DNA from: an uncultured Victivallales bacterium
GTDB taxonomy: Bacteria > Verrucomicrobiota > Kiritimatiellia > UBA8416 > JAIOPI01
Reading direction: 5' to 3'
Length of the DNA stretch: 64,000 nt
Assembly (NCBI GenBank): GCA_964635825.1
Contig: CAZWQJ010000001.1
Span: 12,404 to 76,403, forward strand
Every line of letters starts with the position of its first letter. The stretch's first letter is position 1. Below the pieces are notes generated by a model that was not told the origin of the DNA, ran no database searches, and saw only the letters and a list, made by a program, of their open reading frames with translations. The translations under genes were made by a program, and so were the position numbers. Positions 10,596 through 25,283 of the stretch are shown piece after piece.

Positions 10596-13500
10596 TCACC
10601 GCTTCTGCAGTTTGTAGAACCGGCGCGGCCAGCTCACCGTGTTCGGATCCGTGAACGAGAACTCGCCCGAGGCCGGTGGCGATTGCGTCGCAACGCCGAC
10701 GTAGGTCCAGTTGGTCTGGGTGAGGTCCGGCAAGGCATAGACCTCATACATGGCGTTACTGGAGCCGGAGCCGCTGAATCCGAAGCTGAAACGCCCGCCC
10801 GCCAGCAGACTCGCGCTGTCGATCAGCGGCCGGGTATTGTCGTCGAGACTCAGCCATGCCTGCGCCATCCGCGTGCCAATGGCCTGAATGGCGTCATCGC
10901 CAAAATGCACTGGAGCCCAGTTCGCGTTTGTGACGACGTTGAAGTGAACCGCGTTGTTCCGGACGTCACCGTTCAAGTTGCGGTTGTGTGCGGAGGCCTG
11001 ATGCCACTCGAAGGTCAGCAACCGGAAGTCGTCGGCGTTCACCGTCATGACCCCCGGGATGGTGCTGGCGGCATCCAGCTGGGCCTTTCGGACCTTGTAG
11101 ATGCCGTTCGTGCCTCCGAACCACACGACGCCGTAGTTGCTGTTCGTCCAATACCGTACATCCGGACCTGGGTCTTGCGGGTTGCCGGGATGGATCTGGC
11201 CGATGACCACGGGGAGCGTGGGGACCGCGAAATCGGCGCGCACCCTCCCGATCAGGTTCGTCAGATCCTGGTAGTACCGGCTGCCGGACCCGCAGTCGGA
11301 CTCGCCCTGCAGCCAGAAGAAGCCGGCCAACTGGGCGCCCGGTCGTTCCGCCAGCGCGCACTCCACCCACTCGCTCATTCCCGCATAGCTCCCGCTCTGC
11401 CGATCCGGATTCCAGTTGCCGGCGAGGCTCGTGCCGCCCGGGGCATACTTCACGATCCAGAACTTCTCGTTCGGGCGGCTTCCATGCAGGGTCCACGCCG
11501 CCGTCAGTTCGGGCCCGTAGACCATGTTCGGCTCGCCCGAGGTGAATGTCCACGCATTCGCCCACGGTTCGCCGGGATTGAGACCGGCGGGCCAGTACAG
11601 TAGGTTCGTCGTCCCCTTGGCGATGGTGAAGGGTTTCCGCGTGGGGTCGGTGGGGCTGGTCCGGCTGTACCCCACCCAGTTGGTCTTGAAGAACGCATAG
11701 GGTTGATAGGTTCCGCCGGCCAGGTAGTAGCCGTTGGTGACGCCACCGTAGACGATGTTGGTTTTCATCGAGGCCCAGTGATAGAGGACACCGTCATCGT
11801 AGACACGATCACCTTTGGTTTCCGGCAACCCGCCAATCCAGTCCATCTCGTTGGCGTAGAATCCGTAGACGTTCGTGATCTCGTTGCGCAGATGCGCCGG
11901 CAGATTGGTGATCGTATTCGGCGTTCCGTGGCCTTCCATGTTCGACTGGCCGCAGAAGACCAACACCCGCTCGCCGGTCGGGTTGACGATGTGCACCTTG
12001 ACCTCGCGGGCGAGAACGTGACCGTGCTGGTCGTCCACCGTCAGGCGGAGCACATAGTCGCCTAACGCACCGAAGGACACCCCGGTGCGCAACGCGCCGG
12101 CATTCGCGAAGGTGACGGTGCCGGGCCCGCTGACCTTCGACCAGGCGATCAGCAGCACATCGAGGGGATCGCCGTCCGACGCCAGTCCCGCCAGCACGAT
12201 CGGAGCCCCCATCACACGCGTCATCTCGCCCCCGGCGTAGACCAGCGGAGGTTCATTGCCGGTGGACAGGGAAATCGAGAATGCATCCACCATGCCGAAG
12301 CCGCCCGTCGAGGGATAGTAGACCCCGGCCCATGCCGCATTCGCGGGCGAGACGAACTTGGCGGACGTCGGCGCGTAGTTCGGGTATCCGGCGCCCGTCG
12401 GCACAAACGAGCCGGAACTGATGTACACGCCCGCACTCGTGAACCAGCGGACTTCCGCCTCGCACCCATCGGGCACCGCCGACTGCTGCAGGGCCAGCTT
12501 GTAGACGGATCCCGGCGACGCAATCGGAGCGCGACAGTTGGGTGCGGTCTCGATGCTGACCACTCCACCCGCGTAGCAGTCCATGTACAGCCCATTGTTC
12601 CCGCCGTTGGATTGCAGGCCGACGTTGTTCCCGAGCTTCGGGTTGACCGTCGGAACCGTGAACGTCACCACCCAGCCCGGCATGGAGTAGTCCGTCTGTC
12701 CGGACGATTCGATGTAGATCGGCGCGTTCGTGGCCTCGAAGCCGCAGTTGTACCCCAGCAGATTCCCCAGCGGGTCCAGGTACCCGACATACACATCGCT
12801 GAACACGGAGTACGTTCCGTCCGATGCCGTCAGGCGCAACACATAGGTGCCGATCGTGCTGAGCGTCACGGCGGAGTTCAACGCGTTCGGATTCGCCAGG
12901 GTCGCGCTGCCGGGGCCATCAATGACGGACCAGGTGTACGTGAGCGCATCCCCATTGGGATCGGACACCGCCCCTGCCAGCGTCACCCGGTTGGTGAAGC
13001 CCGCGATCTGCGGGCCGGCATACACCACGGGCGGGTTGTTGGTCCGGATCGCGAAGTTGTCCAGTTCCACATAGCCGGCTACGTCTTTCGCCTGGCCGGA
13101 TGAGTACGAAATGTTCCCGACGGCGTAGTAGTAGGCGGAGGCGGTCGCGGCGCCGGGCGGAGAATACGCATTCAGGTAAAAGGGTTGGAAGTTCCCGCTC
13201 AGGGCATCGGCGTAGAACGAGTTGGTGCTCGCGCCGATCAAGGCGCCCCCGCTGTCATACCAGCGAATGCCTTCCACCTGGGTCTTCATCGCGTACTTCA
13301 TGGCGAAGGAGAGCGTGTAATACGTGTTGGGCGTGACGGGTGCGCGCGCGTCCGGGAGGGTTTCGAGCCACATCGTCCCGGTCGCGCTCAGGCCGAGGGC
13401 ATTGGTGCCGTCGGCCGGACTGGGATAAGCCGTCGCCGAGCCCGCACAGTAGGCGTTGTTGTTCGTGGGCGAATCGCCGTTCGGCTGCGTGAGAACCAGT

Positions 13501-22596: not shown

Positions 22597-23901
22597 TTAG
22601 TCCCCTGGTTGTGGCGATGGCCGCAGATAGTACTGATTTCCCCAGCAAAAGTCTTCCTTGAGCAGAAACCCGTATCCGCCGTGGAAGTGTCCGCCTCCAT
22701 CGAGATACTGCCCCACGGCCTTTTGCAGAGAGGTTCGGCGCGGCACATCGCGGATGTCGGTGACGCCCCAGCCGAAGACGCGCGCGTAGATCTGCTGGTT
22801 GTCGCCCTGAAGTCCCGGGTACAGATACAGCTCGCGCTGCAGACGAACAATGTTGGACTCCGGCGCCAGCATCGTCTGGAGGCGCGAGTCCAGGAGCCAC
22901 GATGCCGTCCAGAAACCGCGGAAGCGGAGGTCCGGGAAGTACCGCGGGAACACCTCCAGCGCGCGGCGGAACGAGTCCCCGCAATCCTCGAACGCCAGGC
23001 GCCCGCCCGCCGAGACATGGAAGGTCAGCATGGGGTCGTCGGGTGCCAATGCCGGCTCCCACTCGTCGAGCGCGAGCGACCGCCGCCGCCGGCTCGCCAG
23101 CCCCGTGGCGTGCACCGGATGGCCGACGACGGCGCGATCCGTCATGTCCAGTGTGCTGGTCCACGCTCCATCCGGGTTGCCGCACCGCTCGCACCAGGCA
23201 TGGCCATCGGAGCCATACCGGATGCCCGCTTCCGCAAGTGCCAGCACCTCGCGCCGCTCCTTGTGGCGGTAGGCGCGCAGCCGCCCGGGGAACGTGCTGG
23301 CGCTGAACTGCAGCCGGCCGAGTTGCAGCAGCTTCCCCTGCCAGTGCTTGCACAACCAGCGCGCAATCCACGGCGTGATGCCCCAGCGCTGAAAACGGTT
23401 GTAGTAGAGATCCGTCTCCATCCACAGCCGCAGATCCGAAACCGTGTCGCGGACGATGTCGGCGGGAATGCCGAGGCGGCGGTATGTCGCCTTCATTTCC
23501 GGCACGACGGCGAGCATGACGAGGACGTTGAGCAGCCCCGCCTCCGGCCCCAGGTAGTCATCCAGCGGCGGCCACTGTTCCTCCCACGACTGGACCAGCG
23601 TGGGGTCGTGCAGCATCCGATGCCGGCAGTACCAGAAGAAGGCGACCAGCTCCGCGTCCGCCGCCACACGACCGGCGAACGCGACCAGTTCCTGAATCAT
23701 AGGTTCGGTCAGGAACACATCCTGTCCGGCTTGCGACACGTAAGCCGGCGCAAGAAAGGCCAACCCCTGTGCGGGAGGATCGTCCATGGCCGCGTCCCAG
23801 GCCGTACAAAGCGCCCTGCCGGCATCGGAAATCCGCAGCTTGCCCGCGACCTGCTCCAGATCAGTGAAGCAGCAGTCCTTCGCATCCACGATCGCGTCCA
23901 T
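22597..23901 (-). CDS. Conserved hypothetical cytoplasmic protein (434 aa, function unknown). Its stop is 4 nt upstream of araA.
   Basis: Long ORF with non-repetitive composition. It lies immediately downstream of one copy of the conserved upstream element (23962-23978). No catalytic motif recognised by eye. Confidence 0.6.
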
Positions 23902-23978: not shown

Positions 23979-24203
23979 TGATATCATTCCCATCCGGACA
24001 CCAACTTACCGGCCACATACAGTCGCCCATCCATGCACCCCGCGCGACCCGAATTGCGTGCGCCATGGACGGTCAAGATGCATCTGTTATGCTTGCGCAA
24101 CGTTCTTGACAGATCACCGGTGGAAGAATCAGCAGACGTTGGCCAAGGTCAAGGGGATCGTTCTGGTGAGCCACGCGCAAGTTGCGGAAGCCGAGGTGGG
24201 CCC

Positions 24204-25187
24204 ATGAATGCACCATCCTCCATATCCTTGGCGCCACGGCATGCCGCGGCGCCACTGAAAGCACGCAAACACTTGCGCATGCAGGGCTGGGATTTCACCA
24301 GCCCCGGCTGGTATTTCCTCACCATCTGCACCAAGAGCATGCGCTCCGAGTTCGGCACTGTTGTAAACGGCCGCATGACCCTGAACGACGCCGGCCGCCT
24401 TGCCGACCAGTTCTGGCGCGAGATCCATGAGCACTTCCCGCGCGCCGTCGTGGACGAACACGTCGTAATGCCCAACCATGTGCATGGCTTGCTGCACCTC
24501 ACGCCAGACGGCTGGACCATCAATGGCCTCACGGCACGCCGTGAAGCGTTCGGCAGACCGGTCGCCGGCTCCGTGCCCACCATCGTGCGCTCGTACAAAG
24601 GCGCCGTCACGCGTGCGCTGGGCTGCAACCCCTGGCATCGCCGATTCTACGAGGTCCGGGCGCGCGACGAGCGGGCGCGGTTCAACATCCGCAACTACAT
24701 CCGCCGCAACCCTGAGAATTTCGATGCCGTCATGAATGGAGGCGAACCGCAATGCCTGGGCAACAAGGCGTTGTTGAACATGCCCAAGGTCGGGTTCCTG
24801 GCCTCGCGCGGGCAGGCAAGTCTGCATGGCAACCTGCCAATCAAACCCGGCGAGGCCATTGTTTCGGGCTTTCTCTCGCCTATGGAGCGCGCCGTATTCC
24901 GGGCCGGGCTGGCCCACAAACGCCCCATGATTTGGATCTTGCCGGCAGGGCTCGACGCCATCCATGGCAGCACGGCATGCCGTGCTGCTATCGAGGAGGG
25001 CTGGTTGCTTGTGCTCTCACCCTTCGACATTGCCCTCGAAGCCCCCAACGCTCGCCGCGCGGTGTGGTGCAACCAGTACGTGCTCGCTCACTGCAACCGC
25101 GCGGTGGTGGGCCACCTCAACCCCGACGGCATGCTCGCCTGCATCCTCCACGAGGCCGACCCCAACACAGAGGTCACCCACCTATGA
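24204..25187 (+). CDS. REP-associated tyrosine transposase-like HuH (Y1) domain fused to a C-terminal DprA/SMF-like Rossmann (SLOG) domain.
   Basis: N-terminal half shows RAYT/IS200-like blocks: GWDFTSPGWYFLTICT, HuH motif MPNHVHGLLHL, SYKGAVTRALG, WHRRFYEVRARDE...NYIRRNPENF. C-terminal ~150 aa align to the DprA Rossmann core: VGFLASRGQASLHG (~vGsRkaSxyG), EAIVSGFLSPMERAVFRAGLA...IWILPAGLDAIHG (~vvSGlAxGIDaaAHxgAL...tiAVLGtGLDviYP), then ...NARRAVWCNQYVL...VVGHLNPDGMLACILHEA. SD-like GAGGTGGG lies upstream of the ATG at 24204. It is the only complete + strand gene. Confidence 0.75.
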   Translation: MNAPSSISLAPRHAAAPLKARKHLRMQGWDFTSPGWYFLTICTKSMRSEFGTVVNGRMTLNDAGRLADQFWREIHEHFPRAVVDEHVVMPNHVHGLLHLTPDGWTINGLTARREAFGRPVAGSVPTIVRSYKGAVTRALGCNPWHRRFYEVRARDERARFNIRNYIRRNPENFDAVMNGGEPQCLGNKALLNMPKVGFLASRGQASLHGNLPIKPGEAIVSGFLSPMERAVFRAGLAHKRPMIWILPAGLDAIHGSTACRAAIEEGWLLVLSPFDIALEAPNARRAVWCNQYVLAHCNRAVVGHLNPDGMLACILHEADPNTEVTHL

Positions 25188-25283
25188 CCGCCATATCCAA
25201 AGCAGCAAGACCGGCATCGCACCGGAAGCGTTCCTGACCGACCTGCTTGAACTGCTCATCTTCGTGACAGAAAGACAATGCCC

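Follow-up and report, generated by a model that had tools for sequence, protein, structure and literature searches.

REP-associated tyrosine transposases (RAYTs, TnpA_REP) constitute class 2 of the TnpA_Y1 family, a class defined by the signature Y---NP (PMC6006769). The biochemically characterized Escherichia coli enzyme, a member of subclass 2.2, recognizes a folded single-stranded repetitive extragenic palindromic (REP) hairpin together with a 5' tetranucleotide (PMC8266576), and cleavage and rejoining at hairpins have been shown for this protein as well as for TnpA of the IS200/IS605 group (PMC8266576; PMC6006769). The presence of in-frame REPs within the RAYT gene itself is a published hallmark of TnpA_Y1 subclass 2.4 (group 4 of Bertels; Quentin, Siguier, Chandler and Fichant 2018, PMC6006769). 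How RAYTs gain access to cellular single-stranded DNA (ssDNA) and what purpose REPs serve are open questions (PMC6006769, PMC8266576). DprA proteins, on the other hand, bind ssDNA through two motifs, G-S/T/A-R (motif 1) and F/L/Y-x-x-R-N/D (motif 2), which were defined from the Helicobacter pylori complex (PMC3950713). Here, we analyzed 64,000 nucleotides (nt) of contig CAZWQJ010000001.1 from an uncultured Victivallales bacterium (positions 12,404 to 76,403; hereafter, the window), in which one plus-strand open reading frame (ORF; 24204..25187, 327 amino acids (aa) plus stop) joins a RAYT-type HuH domain to a DprA-like domain. A first-pass annotation of the sequence had proposed that a RAYT-type HuH tyrosine transposase and a DprA/Smf-like Rossmann domain are fused in one ORF, and this proposal is borne out by orthologs and by fold and profile links. 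The gene probably represents a domesticated RAYT, closest to subclass 2.4, which has acquired a truncated C-terminal DprA-like Rossmann domain and whose hairpin-specific cleavage and joining of ssDNA would be aided by this DprA-type module.

The peptide blocks listed in that annotation (GWYFLTICT, NHVHGLLHL, SYKGAV, WHRRFYEVRARDE, NYIRRNPENF, IVSGFLSP...ILPAGLD, RRAVWCNQYV, and DGMLACIL) are all present in the ORF. Neither the whole protein nor either of its halves had a significant match in Pfam scans, and a phmmer search of the single window sequence against PDB gave no match. NCBIfam NF047646 (REP_Tyr_transpos), however, matched aa 35–170 of the protein (E = 1.5e-9), and a profile built from 34 orthologs retrieved E. 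coli TnpA_REP (4er8) from PDB at E = 1.2e-3, together with the ISDra2 transposases (TnpA). In the alignment to 4er8, PNHVHG is paired with PEHMHC, and vWQrRFyd...YIreNP with IWQPRFWE...YIYINP. Foldseek searches with an AlphaFold model of the window protein (predicted local distance difference test (pLDDT) 77.6) identified 4er8 as the best HuH fold match (E = 3e-6, template modeling (TM) score on the target 0.57), and also matched 2xm3 (4e-6), ISDra2 and IS608 TnpA (4e-6 to 1e-4), and IS200 TnpA; strands and helices follow the expected order. The HuH/Y1 catalytic domain was thus placed at aa 27–175 (24282..24728, plus strand), in agreement with the earlier assignment of the N-terminal half.

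Two alignments were used to assess conservation within the family: A1, which comprises 34 sequences, and A3, which comprises 13 sequences at ~30% identity; a third one, A4, includes mini-DprA proteins (see below). The HuH motif H92-V93-H94, located within PNHVHG (24477..24485, plus strand), aligns with that of 4er8, and both His residues are invariant in A1 and A3. The Tyr motif Y165-I-R-R-N169-P170 (24696..24713, plus strand) carries the class 2 signature and aligns with YIYINP of E. coli TnpA_REP, Y165 and N169 being invariant. The alignments show that the HuH histidines, the predicted catalytic Tyr, and the putative metal-site Asn are all intact.

The C-terminal half (aa 183–327; 24750..25184, plus strand) is best described as a truncated DprA-like, SLOG-type Rossmann domain, which we refer to as mini-DprA. 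As a single sequence, it gave only a marginal hint of TIGR00732 (E = 0.16). When the ortholog profile was searched against PDB, DprA of Streptococcus pneumoniae (3uqz) was the sole nontransposase match, and it was also the single match (E up to 10) of a profile restricted to the C-terminal domain. The blocks aligned with 3uqz are GN..LL.(F/L)PKV(A/G).(V/L)(G/A)SR, (V/I)SG(L/F)...(I/M)(D/E), and the strand before GLD. A structural model of the domain alone (pLDDT 80, predicted TM score 0.80) was matched by Foldseek to ShosA (E = 6.6e-6), H. pylori DprA (4.3e-4), S. pneumoniae DprA (4.8e-4), and Rhodopseudomonas palustris DprA; these ShosA and DprA matches range from E = 6.6e-6 to 9.8e-3 with TM scores of 0.63–0.69, nothing else falls below E = 0.01, and the next unrelated match has E > 0.3. 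In addition, the PADLOC model of PsyrA, a DprA-like antitoxin, matches aa 185–303 at 1.7e-5.

An exhaustive search of 1.84 billion representative sequences with the C-terminal domain profile revealed 886 relatives, among which are stand-alone proteins of ~150 aa that pass or approach the threshold of Pfam DNA_processg_A (PF02481). Two of the intermediates, P0161 (34.3 bits versus a threshold of 29.6) and P0233 (42.6 bits), pass it. By sequence, the window domain is linked to PF02481 transitively, via P0161, P0168, and P0233. With significant fold and profile links to DprA in hand, the DprA-like nature claimed for the C-terminal half stands, and the absence of any DprA/SLOG profile match, which the first-pass annotation had named as grounds for dropping it, is not what was found.

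Comparison with DprA-type proteins revealed both common and distinct features. DprA/Smf (PF02481; 3UQZ, 4LJL/4LJR), ShosA, and PsyrA have the Rossmann fold in common with the C-terminal domain, and shared sequence features include the entry motif GN..LL...K.(A/G)(F/V).(A/G)S(R), the SG(F/L)xxxx(E/D) loop, and the pocket Asn. A200-S201-R202 (24801..24809, plus strand) aligns to VGSR of S. pneumoniae DprA and is the equivalent of motif 1; Gly is replaced by Ala, S201 is invariant in all clades and in the stand-alone relatives, and R202 is invariant in the clade of the window protein. The equivalent of motif 2 is A286-V-W-C289-N290 (25059..25073, plus strand), as aligned in A4 with mini-DprA proteins carrying x-x-R-N. 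This segment departs from the DprA consensus, having Cys in place of Arg, although N290 is invariant in A1, A3, and A4. Whereas DprA/Smf proteins contain a domain of ~205 aa flanked by SAM and/or winged-helix domains, the C-terminal domain has ~145 aa, and neither SAM nor winged-helix domain is present in the window protein. Unlike DprA, the domain alone remains below the Pfam threshold.

Since adjacent genes for a RAYT and a small DprA-like protein could be merged by a sequencing or assembly error, and the resemblance of the C-terminal half to DprA could be due to chance, we considered whether the fusion is an artefact, for which the missing direct Pfam match of the C-terminal half might speak. 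Three contigs of independent origin, among them one from a JGI+NCBI metagenome and one assembled by Logan from a different run, encode an identical 327-aa protein, so a frameshift or stop splitting the gene, raised earlier as a possible refutation, is not the case. A search of 5.8 billion proteins yielded 439 homologs, and nearly all of the 120 homologs listed are full length (~300–335 aa, 92–100% query cover). A second deep clade with the same architecture contains at least 303 full-length fusions with ~30% identity to the window protein, whose named members belong to Kiritimatiellae. The database search suggested in the annotation thus recovered hundreds of full-length orthologs in two deep clades. 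Residues on either side of the junction are invariant in both clades (H92, H94, W144, Y165, and N169 in the N-terminal half; G186, S201, F223, E228, N290, and G309 in the C-terminal half). Estimates of dN/dS against five orthologs are 0.14–0.22 for the N-terminal domain and 0.09–0.30 for the C-terminal domain; both halves are under purifying selection. Considering also that the structural match singles out DprA and ShosA and that the transitive sequence link exceeds the Pfam threshold, an artefact has a negligible probability and is already refuted.

The fusion has a restricted distribution. When one genome per species of the GTDB collection was examined, full-length matches were detected only in metagenome-assembled genomes (MAGs) of the Planctomycetes–Verrucomicrobia–Chlamydiae (PVC) group (Verrucomicrobiota, Victivallales/Lentisphaerales, Pontiellaceae, and Tichowtungia), whereas matches in other phyla are confined to residues ~21–170 and the ORFs there end after ~190–230 aa. 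Candidate fusions outside the PVC group, in the candidate phyla radiation (Gracilibacteria, Parcubacteria, and Peribacteria) and in Spirochaetota (L042, L059, L062, and L067), which arose from tblastn matches extending to aa 197–225, were rejected because their ORFs end at ~190–230 aa. The fusion is a large family conserved across the sampled PVC lineages (Verrucomicrobiota, Lentisphaerota, and Kiritimatiellota) and is not peculiar to one genome. Members of this family are named RayT, transposase, or hypothetical protein in databases, the C-terminal half having no domain call.

With regard to known RAYTs, the consensus motifs of the family (NHVH / W[QH] / YIRxNP) have their closest counterpart in subclass 2.4, as listed in Table 1 of PMC6006769. 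The HuH motif of that subclass is NH[IFV]H and that of the fusion NHVH; its W-Q motif (PMC6006769) is found as W-H in the window protein and as W-Q in most orthologs; and its Y motif, YIxNNP, is close to but not identical with YIRRNP. Both groups also have in common a variable beta3-alphaC insertion built of in-frame REP sequence, double-foot REPs, and low copy number. The nearest nonfused relatives, with 33–44% identity, are ORFs of ~190–230 aa in Nostoc, Chloroflexota, Nitrospira, and Bacteroidota, a set which falls within the phyla given for subclass 2.4 and again points to it. On the other hand, subclass 2.4 proteins have a median length of 194 aa and consist of the core only, whereas the fusion reaches 327 aa owing to the conserved C-terminal domain of ~145 aa, and for this reason it was not filed as a plain member. 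REPs of the fusion, unlike those of subclass 2.4, additionally occupy the N-terminal tail and the added domain; most feet in the window's clade are AT[AG]N and not GT[AG]G; and the fusion occurs in PVC phyla, whereas neither Verrucomicrobia nor Lentisphaer- occurs anywhere in PMC6006769. Judging from its motifs and relatives, the fusion appears to be a derived variant next to subclass 2.4. E. coli TnpA_REP (4ER8) is a more distant reference: it has in common with the fusion the fold, the HuH motif, the Tyr on the Y---NP helix, and the conserved W, but its short C-terminal tail, which contacts GTAG, is replaced in the fusion by a linker and a whole Rossmann domain, and the REPs of E. coli are bulged, extragenic, and highly repeated, whereas the palindromes of the fusion are perfect and mostly intragenic.

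The first-pass annotation had seen no obvious REP hairpins flanking the gene. This is literally true of the flanks, but three REP-type hairpins lie in frame inside the gene itself, at sites that correspond to surface loops or tails of the protein. Copy 1 (TGGCGCCACGGCATGCCGCGGCGCCA; 24229-24254), recognized as inverted repeat I24 and by its core match, encodes aa 9–17 (PRHAAAP) in the disordered N-terminal tail. Copy 2 (foot ATGG, then CCT-CACGGCACGCCGTG; ~24520-24546), which matches the core with one mismatch, encodes aa 106–114. Copy 3 (TCCATGGCAGCACGGCA/TGCCGTGCTGCTATCGA; 24961-24994), recognized as inverted repeat I8, encodes aa 253–264 (HGSTACRAAIE) within the DprA-like domain and contains a perfect core palindrome of 22 nt at 24967-24988. 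The hairpin core of the window copies is CACGGCATGCCGTG. When at most one mismatch is allowed, the 64-kb window contains three copies of the 12-mer ACGGCATGCCGT, all of them inside the gene, versus 0.44 expected by chance for the whole window. As ssDNA, copy 1 (-11.4 kcal/mol, z -2.4) and copy 3 (-12.7 kcal/mol, z -3.0) form stable folds, and only 3 of 5000 codon shuffles of the gene matched the arm length of copy 3. Copies 1 and 2 coincide with segments of pLDDT below 50 (aa 1–28 and aa 105–116, respectively), and the loop of copy 2, which follows the HuH strand, is the beta3-alphaC loop that carries in-frame REPs in subclass 2.4 RAYTs.

In the protein alignment, the three REP sites are hypervariable regions which read PRHAV or TACR, that is, translated palindrome. 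Perfect palindromes of 20–34 nt were found at the same three positions in orthologs (L002, L006–L016, L034, L206, L207, and L209), those at the position of copy 1 having 22–34 nt. Across 15 loci, 19 perfect palindromes of at least 20 nt are present in 14.9 kb of gene sequence (14 of the 15 genes) versus 2 in 249 kb of flanks, a ~160-fold enrichment. The element has a constant geometry and consists of a 4-nt foot [A/G]T[A/G][G/C], 3 variable nt of the lower stem, the top CACGG-CATG-CCGTG, and 3 complementary nt, with a mirrored foot in some copies. In 32 copies taken together, 81% of the stem cells are paired; at pair 12-29, for instance, AU was observed 8 times, GC 8, CG 6, and UA 5. The covariation score of 0.332 compares with 0.14 in shuffles (0 of 500 reach 0.332) and with at most 0.138 when the partner is slid, which shows that stem pairing is maintained by compensatory changes. 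More distant orthologs carry other palindromes at the same positions, such as GGGTCGGCAATTGCCGACCC and CGGGTTTGGCATGCCAAACCCG.

Several multicopy arrangements were also noticed. In one ortholog (P0077; L206 6722-6851), three REP cores exactly 54 nt apart (centres 6732, 6786, and 6840) are located inside the DprA-like domain, where they encode an 18-aa tandem peptide repeat (TACRDATEVEFRGIFRSL...), and multicopy inserts similar to that of P0077 are present in P0053, P0072, P0010, and P0081. This pattern suggests local in-frame tandem amplification of REP units. A further near-palindrome in the codons of FLASRG(E/K) (L209 8578-8599; L207 8622-8639; several orthologs) was set aside as probably a coding coincidence, because the codons of L-A-S-R-G-(K/E) are self-complementary. 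In the MAG CAZITJ01, two paralogous fusion genes, L009 (55% identity to the query) and L012 (52%), each have their own palindrome, GAACGGGCTTGGAATTCCAAGCCCGTTC and GGATTTGATGCATCAAATCC, respectively, which is reminiscent of the published rule of a separate REP family for each RAYT.

Extragenic copies in orthologs are sometimes located 20–40 nt past the stop and reach up to ~1.3 kb downstream. Four orthologous loci (L006, L007, L008, and L209) combine a REP at codons ~4–17 with a REP of the same orientation 20–40 nt past the stop, so that the gene might be read as an autonomous IS200/IS605-like mobile element, of which the 5' and post-stop REPs would be the left and right end hairpins. The varying genomic positions among genomes and the two paralogs within one MAG would agree with mobility. 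However, the gene is present in a single copy in the 64-kb window, where it has no downstream REP; the paralogs of CAZITJ01, only ~50–55% identical to the query and with different palindromes, are not recent copies; and L002–L005, from four sample sources, encode the same protein in the same context. RAYTs, in contrast to insertion sequences, typically show a low copy number and a vertical pattern (PMC5581495; PMC6006769). We thus regard an autonomous element as very improbable.

A metagenome scan for the 14-nt core was saturated by the canonical REP of other organisms, and it informs on relatedness rather than on copy number in the host: 134 of the 135 sites have no fusion gene nearby. Most of these sites read GTAGGGG-CACGGCATGCCGTG-CCCCTAC, a canonical double-foot REP whose geometry is exactly that of the hairpins in the gene. 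This canonical REP is widespread on many unrelated contigs (L086–L205), one of which (L197) has five copies in 1.2 kb. It is also found in frame in the beta3-alphaC loop of nonfused RAYTs from Dehalococcoidia, Anaerolineae, and Nitrospira (L018, L021, and L026), where it reads GTACRAPT or GARHAVPL. Compared with the published in-gene REPs, what is new here is that sites are also located in the N-terminal tail and in a loop of the DprA-like domain, and that their positions are conserved across deep clades.

Rickettsia palindromic elements, reportedly described by Ogata et al. in 2000 as in-frame palindromic insertions in protein-coding genes, are a similar case of short palindromes tolerated in frame in surface loops of proteins. 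Unlike those elements, the hairpins described here reside in a gene for the very enzyme family that processes such hairpins, and, across deep clades, they occupy the same three positions with differing palindrome sequences.

How might the two halves work together? By analogy with E. coli TnpA_REP and IS200/IS605 TnpA, on which the proposed REP cleavage mechanism is modeled, the N-terminal domain would bind a folded single-stranded REP hairpin and its foot, and would cleave and rejoin the adjacent ssDNA via a 5'-phosphotyrosine on Y165, with the metal held by H92, H94, and N169. The DprA-like domain could provide a second, sequence-independent pocket for adjacent ssDNA, which DprA and ShosA bind experimentally, and might possibly add dimerization or a contact to RecA. 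It would thereby retain the single-stranded substrate or bring it to the enzyme, with gapped DNA or the template of the lagging strand as examples. The REPs within the gene would most simply be cognate elements inserted or retained at the sole permissive sites, so that the gene would be its own REPtron.

Several observations weigh against reading the gene as a REP-processing RAYT with an ssDNA-binding DprA module. The match to NF047646 has a score of 37.9 bits, below the curated cutoff of 80; nonfused relatives of the 2.4 type also miss this cutoff (58 bits), which indicates that the model is narrower than the family. The window protein has no PF02481 match, the best of 18 orthologs reaching only E = 0.053, and the domain (~145 aa) spans only Pfam positions ~34–173 of 212, so that the RecA-interaction surface should not be assumed. 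R202 is not conserved in the deep clade, and the equivalent of DprA Arg143, one of the two key arginines of the ssDNA pocket, is an invariant Cys (Cys289); because of this Cys and the variable R202, the pocket may be altered. In view of the truncation, the missing SAM and winged-helix domains, and the Cys, the recombination-mediator-like loader suggested in the first-pass annotation is overstated or not supported. As to the hairpins, copy 2 is degenerate and has decayed to a 6-bp stem, no REP copy was detected outside the gene in ~63 kb of the window, and none beyond ~1.3 kb downstream in the 249 kb of ortholog flanks. An active RAYT is marked by REPs dispersed in the genome, and this extragenic scarcity would weigh against an actively spreading REP system.

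The possibly altered pocket is also one ground for a different view of the added domain, namely that it is a dimerization or regulatory SLOG-type domain, perhaps sensing a small ligand or nucleotide, which controls the HuH nuclease instead of binding ssDNA or loading RecA, for example, by forcing the dimeric trans-active-site arrangement of IS200/IS605 TnpA. DprA itself dimerizes via its Rossmann domain (PMC3950713), and not only the Cys in place of Arg143 and the variation of R202 but also the truncation relative to PF02481 would be in line with such a role, as would the weaker fold matches, which include ligand-binding SLOG-type or related Rossmann proteins (YpsA, MoCo carrier, LOG-like, and DNPH1). 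These ligand-binding relatives, however, have E > 0.3, and only DprA and ShosA are found below E = 0.01; the Ser and Asn of the DprA pocket and the GN..LL entry motif are invariant; and the closest solved structures, DprA and ShosA, both bind ssDNA experimentally (PMC3950713 for DprA). On balance, a purely regulatory domain seems rather unlikely, and an ssDNA-binding module remains our preferred interpretation.

Relatives of the C-terminal domain occur in other settings. The stand-alone mini-DprA proteins (~150 aa; for example, P0161, P0168, and P0174) agree with the C-terminal domain in length and motif set and match its profile with E = 1e-13 to 1e-21; unlike the fused domain, they have kept the canonical R-N in motif 2 of DprA and exceed or come close to the PF02481 threshold. 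Their partners vary and include an OLD-like ATPase, DUF488, radical SAM, or none. A three-gene cassette, found in two genomic contexts (L211 1859-4471; L212 1747-4359; L213), consists of a Y1_Tnp gene (149 aa, subclass 1.2 type, YIINQQEHH), a gene for an OLD/GajA-like ATPase-TOPRIM protein (AAA_21/OLD-like TOPRIM, 525 aa, with PADLOC matches to Old, AriA, and GajA), and a mini-DprA gene (P0174, 156 aa) whose start overlaps the preceding gene. This cassette might represent either the fusion's unfused counterpart or a defence-like module. Taken together, cassette and fusion imply that a partnership between Y1 and mini-DprA has been seen twice independently; the module is nonetheless promiscuous. 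Other occurrences include a mini-DprA gene which overlaps a DUF488 gene at the end of the latter, with DNA methylases and an integrase nearby (L220 3640-4468), a mini-DprA fused to a radical SAM domain (P0236, 439 aa), and a mini-DprA alone among genes for carbohydrate-active enzymes (CAZymes; L217).

The cassette also bears on a bolder proposal, in which the fusion is a mechanistically new RAYT whose mini-DprA, once the HuH domain has nicked at a REP hairpin, passes the covalently tethered or adjacent ssDNA on to RecA, so that REP-bounded DNA would be moved or repaired by homologous recombination rather than by cut-and-paste. The in-gene hairpins, perfectly palindromic and conserved in position but divergent in sequence, would then be functional cis sites, for instance for autoregulation or self-targeted nicking, instead of passive insertions, and the unfused cassette of Y1_Tnp, OLD-like, and mini-DprA genes would be the ancestral multiprotein version. 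We consider this full scenario quite unlikely.

A description of a DprA-like RAYT fusion was not found in full-text searches of the literature on RAYT/TnpA_REP/Y1 transposases and DprA-like proteins, and the reference classification (PMC6006769) mentions neither DprA nor Smf; the impression of the annotation that the architecture is undescribed appears to be correct. What is new is a RAYT lineage with a previously unannotated mini-DprA domain, whereas the enzyme class and the phenomenon of intragenic REPs were already known. To our knowledge, no domesticated prokaryotic transposases other than RAYTs are known to maintain a population of short repeats. A RAYT core joined to a DprA-type module, as conserved across the sampled PVC lineages, offers a hypothesis that can be tested on how substrates may be captured and on a possible connection to RecA-dependent recombination. 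The short mini-DprA module, alone or together with other nucleases, extends the range of DprA-like proteins beyond transformation and the ShosA/PsyrA antitoxins. In-frame REPs in three loops, whose positions are kept while their sequences turn over, extend what had been a curiosity of subclass 2.4, and they provide a natural system in which to ask whether in-gene hairpins are tolerated passengers or cis-acting sites.

The genomic context of the fusion gene was also examined. The neighbors are all encoded on the minus strand: upstream, a GNAT-like protein (NAT_N/GNAT_C), L-arabinose isomerase (AraA), and a CotH/LTD giant protein; downstream, a PATR-repeat protein, two Pel9A-like (pectate-lyase-like) beta-helix proteins, a GDSL lipase, and a polysaccharide deacetylase. 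A conserved neighbor gene of the fusion was not found across the window, L002–L005, L206, L207, and L209. The description of a solitary gene of domesticated appearance among unrelated genes therefore holds, and a solitary setting without conserved neighbors fits a domesticated, RAYT-like lifestyle.

In other genomes, some fusion genes lie close to defence genes, which raises the possibility that the protein acts in conflict or defence, coupling a HuH nuclease effector to a DprA-like domain that senses foreign or damaged ssDNA, with the in-gene hairpins being incidental passengers. One ortholog (L207) adjoins hsdM and AbiEii, and another (L209) has an SNF2 helicase on one side and DUF1156/DUF499 genes on the other. 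In addition, the DprA-like antitoxins ShosA and PsyrA of antiphage systems are the closest relatives of the C-terminal domain by fold and profile, and a stand-alone mini-DprA is translationally coupled to the OLD/GajA-like ATPase-TOPRIM nuclease. Nevertheless, no conserved partner gene accompanies the fusion, and its neighbors in the window, L002, and L206 are housekeeping or CAZyme genes. Moreover, the specific covarying REP hairpins with RAYT-type feet tie the gene to REP biology. Transposase genes, whether mobile or domesticated, also commonly land in defence islands anyway. A defence function appears improbable to us.

Details of these and related loci are as follows. In L207 (3443-7787), the fusion gene directly follows hsdM, and DUF6088/AbiEii is inserted in the type I restriction-modification locus. 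In L209/L210 (4144-16981), the fusion gene is located between genes for a helix-turn-helix/SNF2-helicase giant protein and a kinase, beyond which are a 1381-aa DUF1156 protein with its own Y1_Tnp Pfam match, a Schlafen/AlbA_2 protein, and DUF499. A stand-alone RAYT in L042 has a type I methylase-like ORF immediately behind it in the same frame.

A few additional features of the window locus were noted. An inverted repeat of 24 nt with 83% complementarity brackets the gene (23705-23728 / 25218-25241); it was judged to be due to chance, since its left arm is within the GNAT-like coding sequence and it was not seen in orthologs. The reading frame is open farther upstream, to an in-frame ATG at 24033. 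This longer ORF is not preceded by a Shine-Dalgarno-like sequence, whereas a putative one, GAGGTGG (24193..24199, plus strand), was read 4 nt before the ATG at 24204; because of this element and of ortholog starts near 24204, the 327-aa form is favored. Apart from the fusion gene, the long credible ORFs of the window (1-64000) all appear to be on the minus strand and encode giant secreted or repeat proteins, CAZyme-like proteins, and AraA. The G+C content of the fusion gene (0.60–0.65) is slightly lower than that of its flanks (0.67–0.70).

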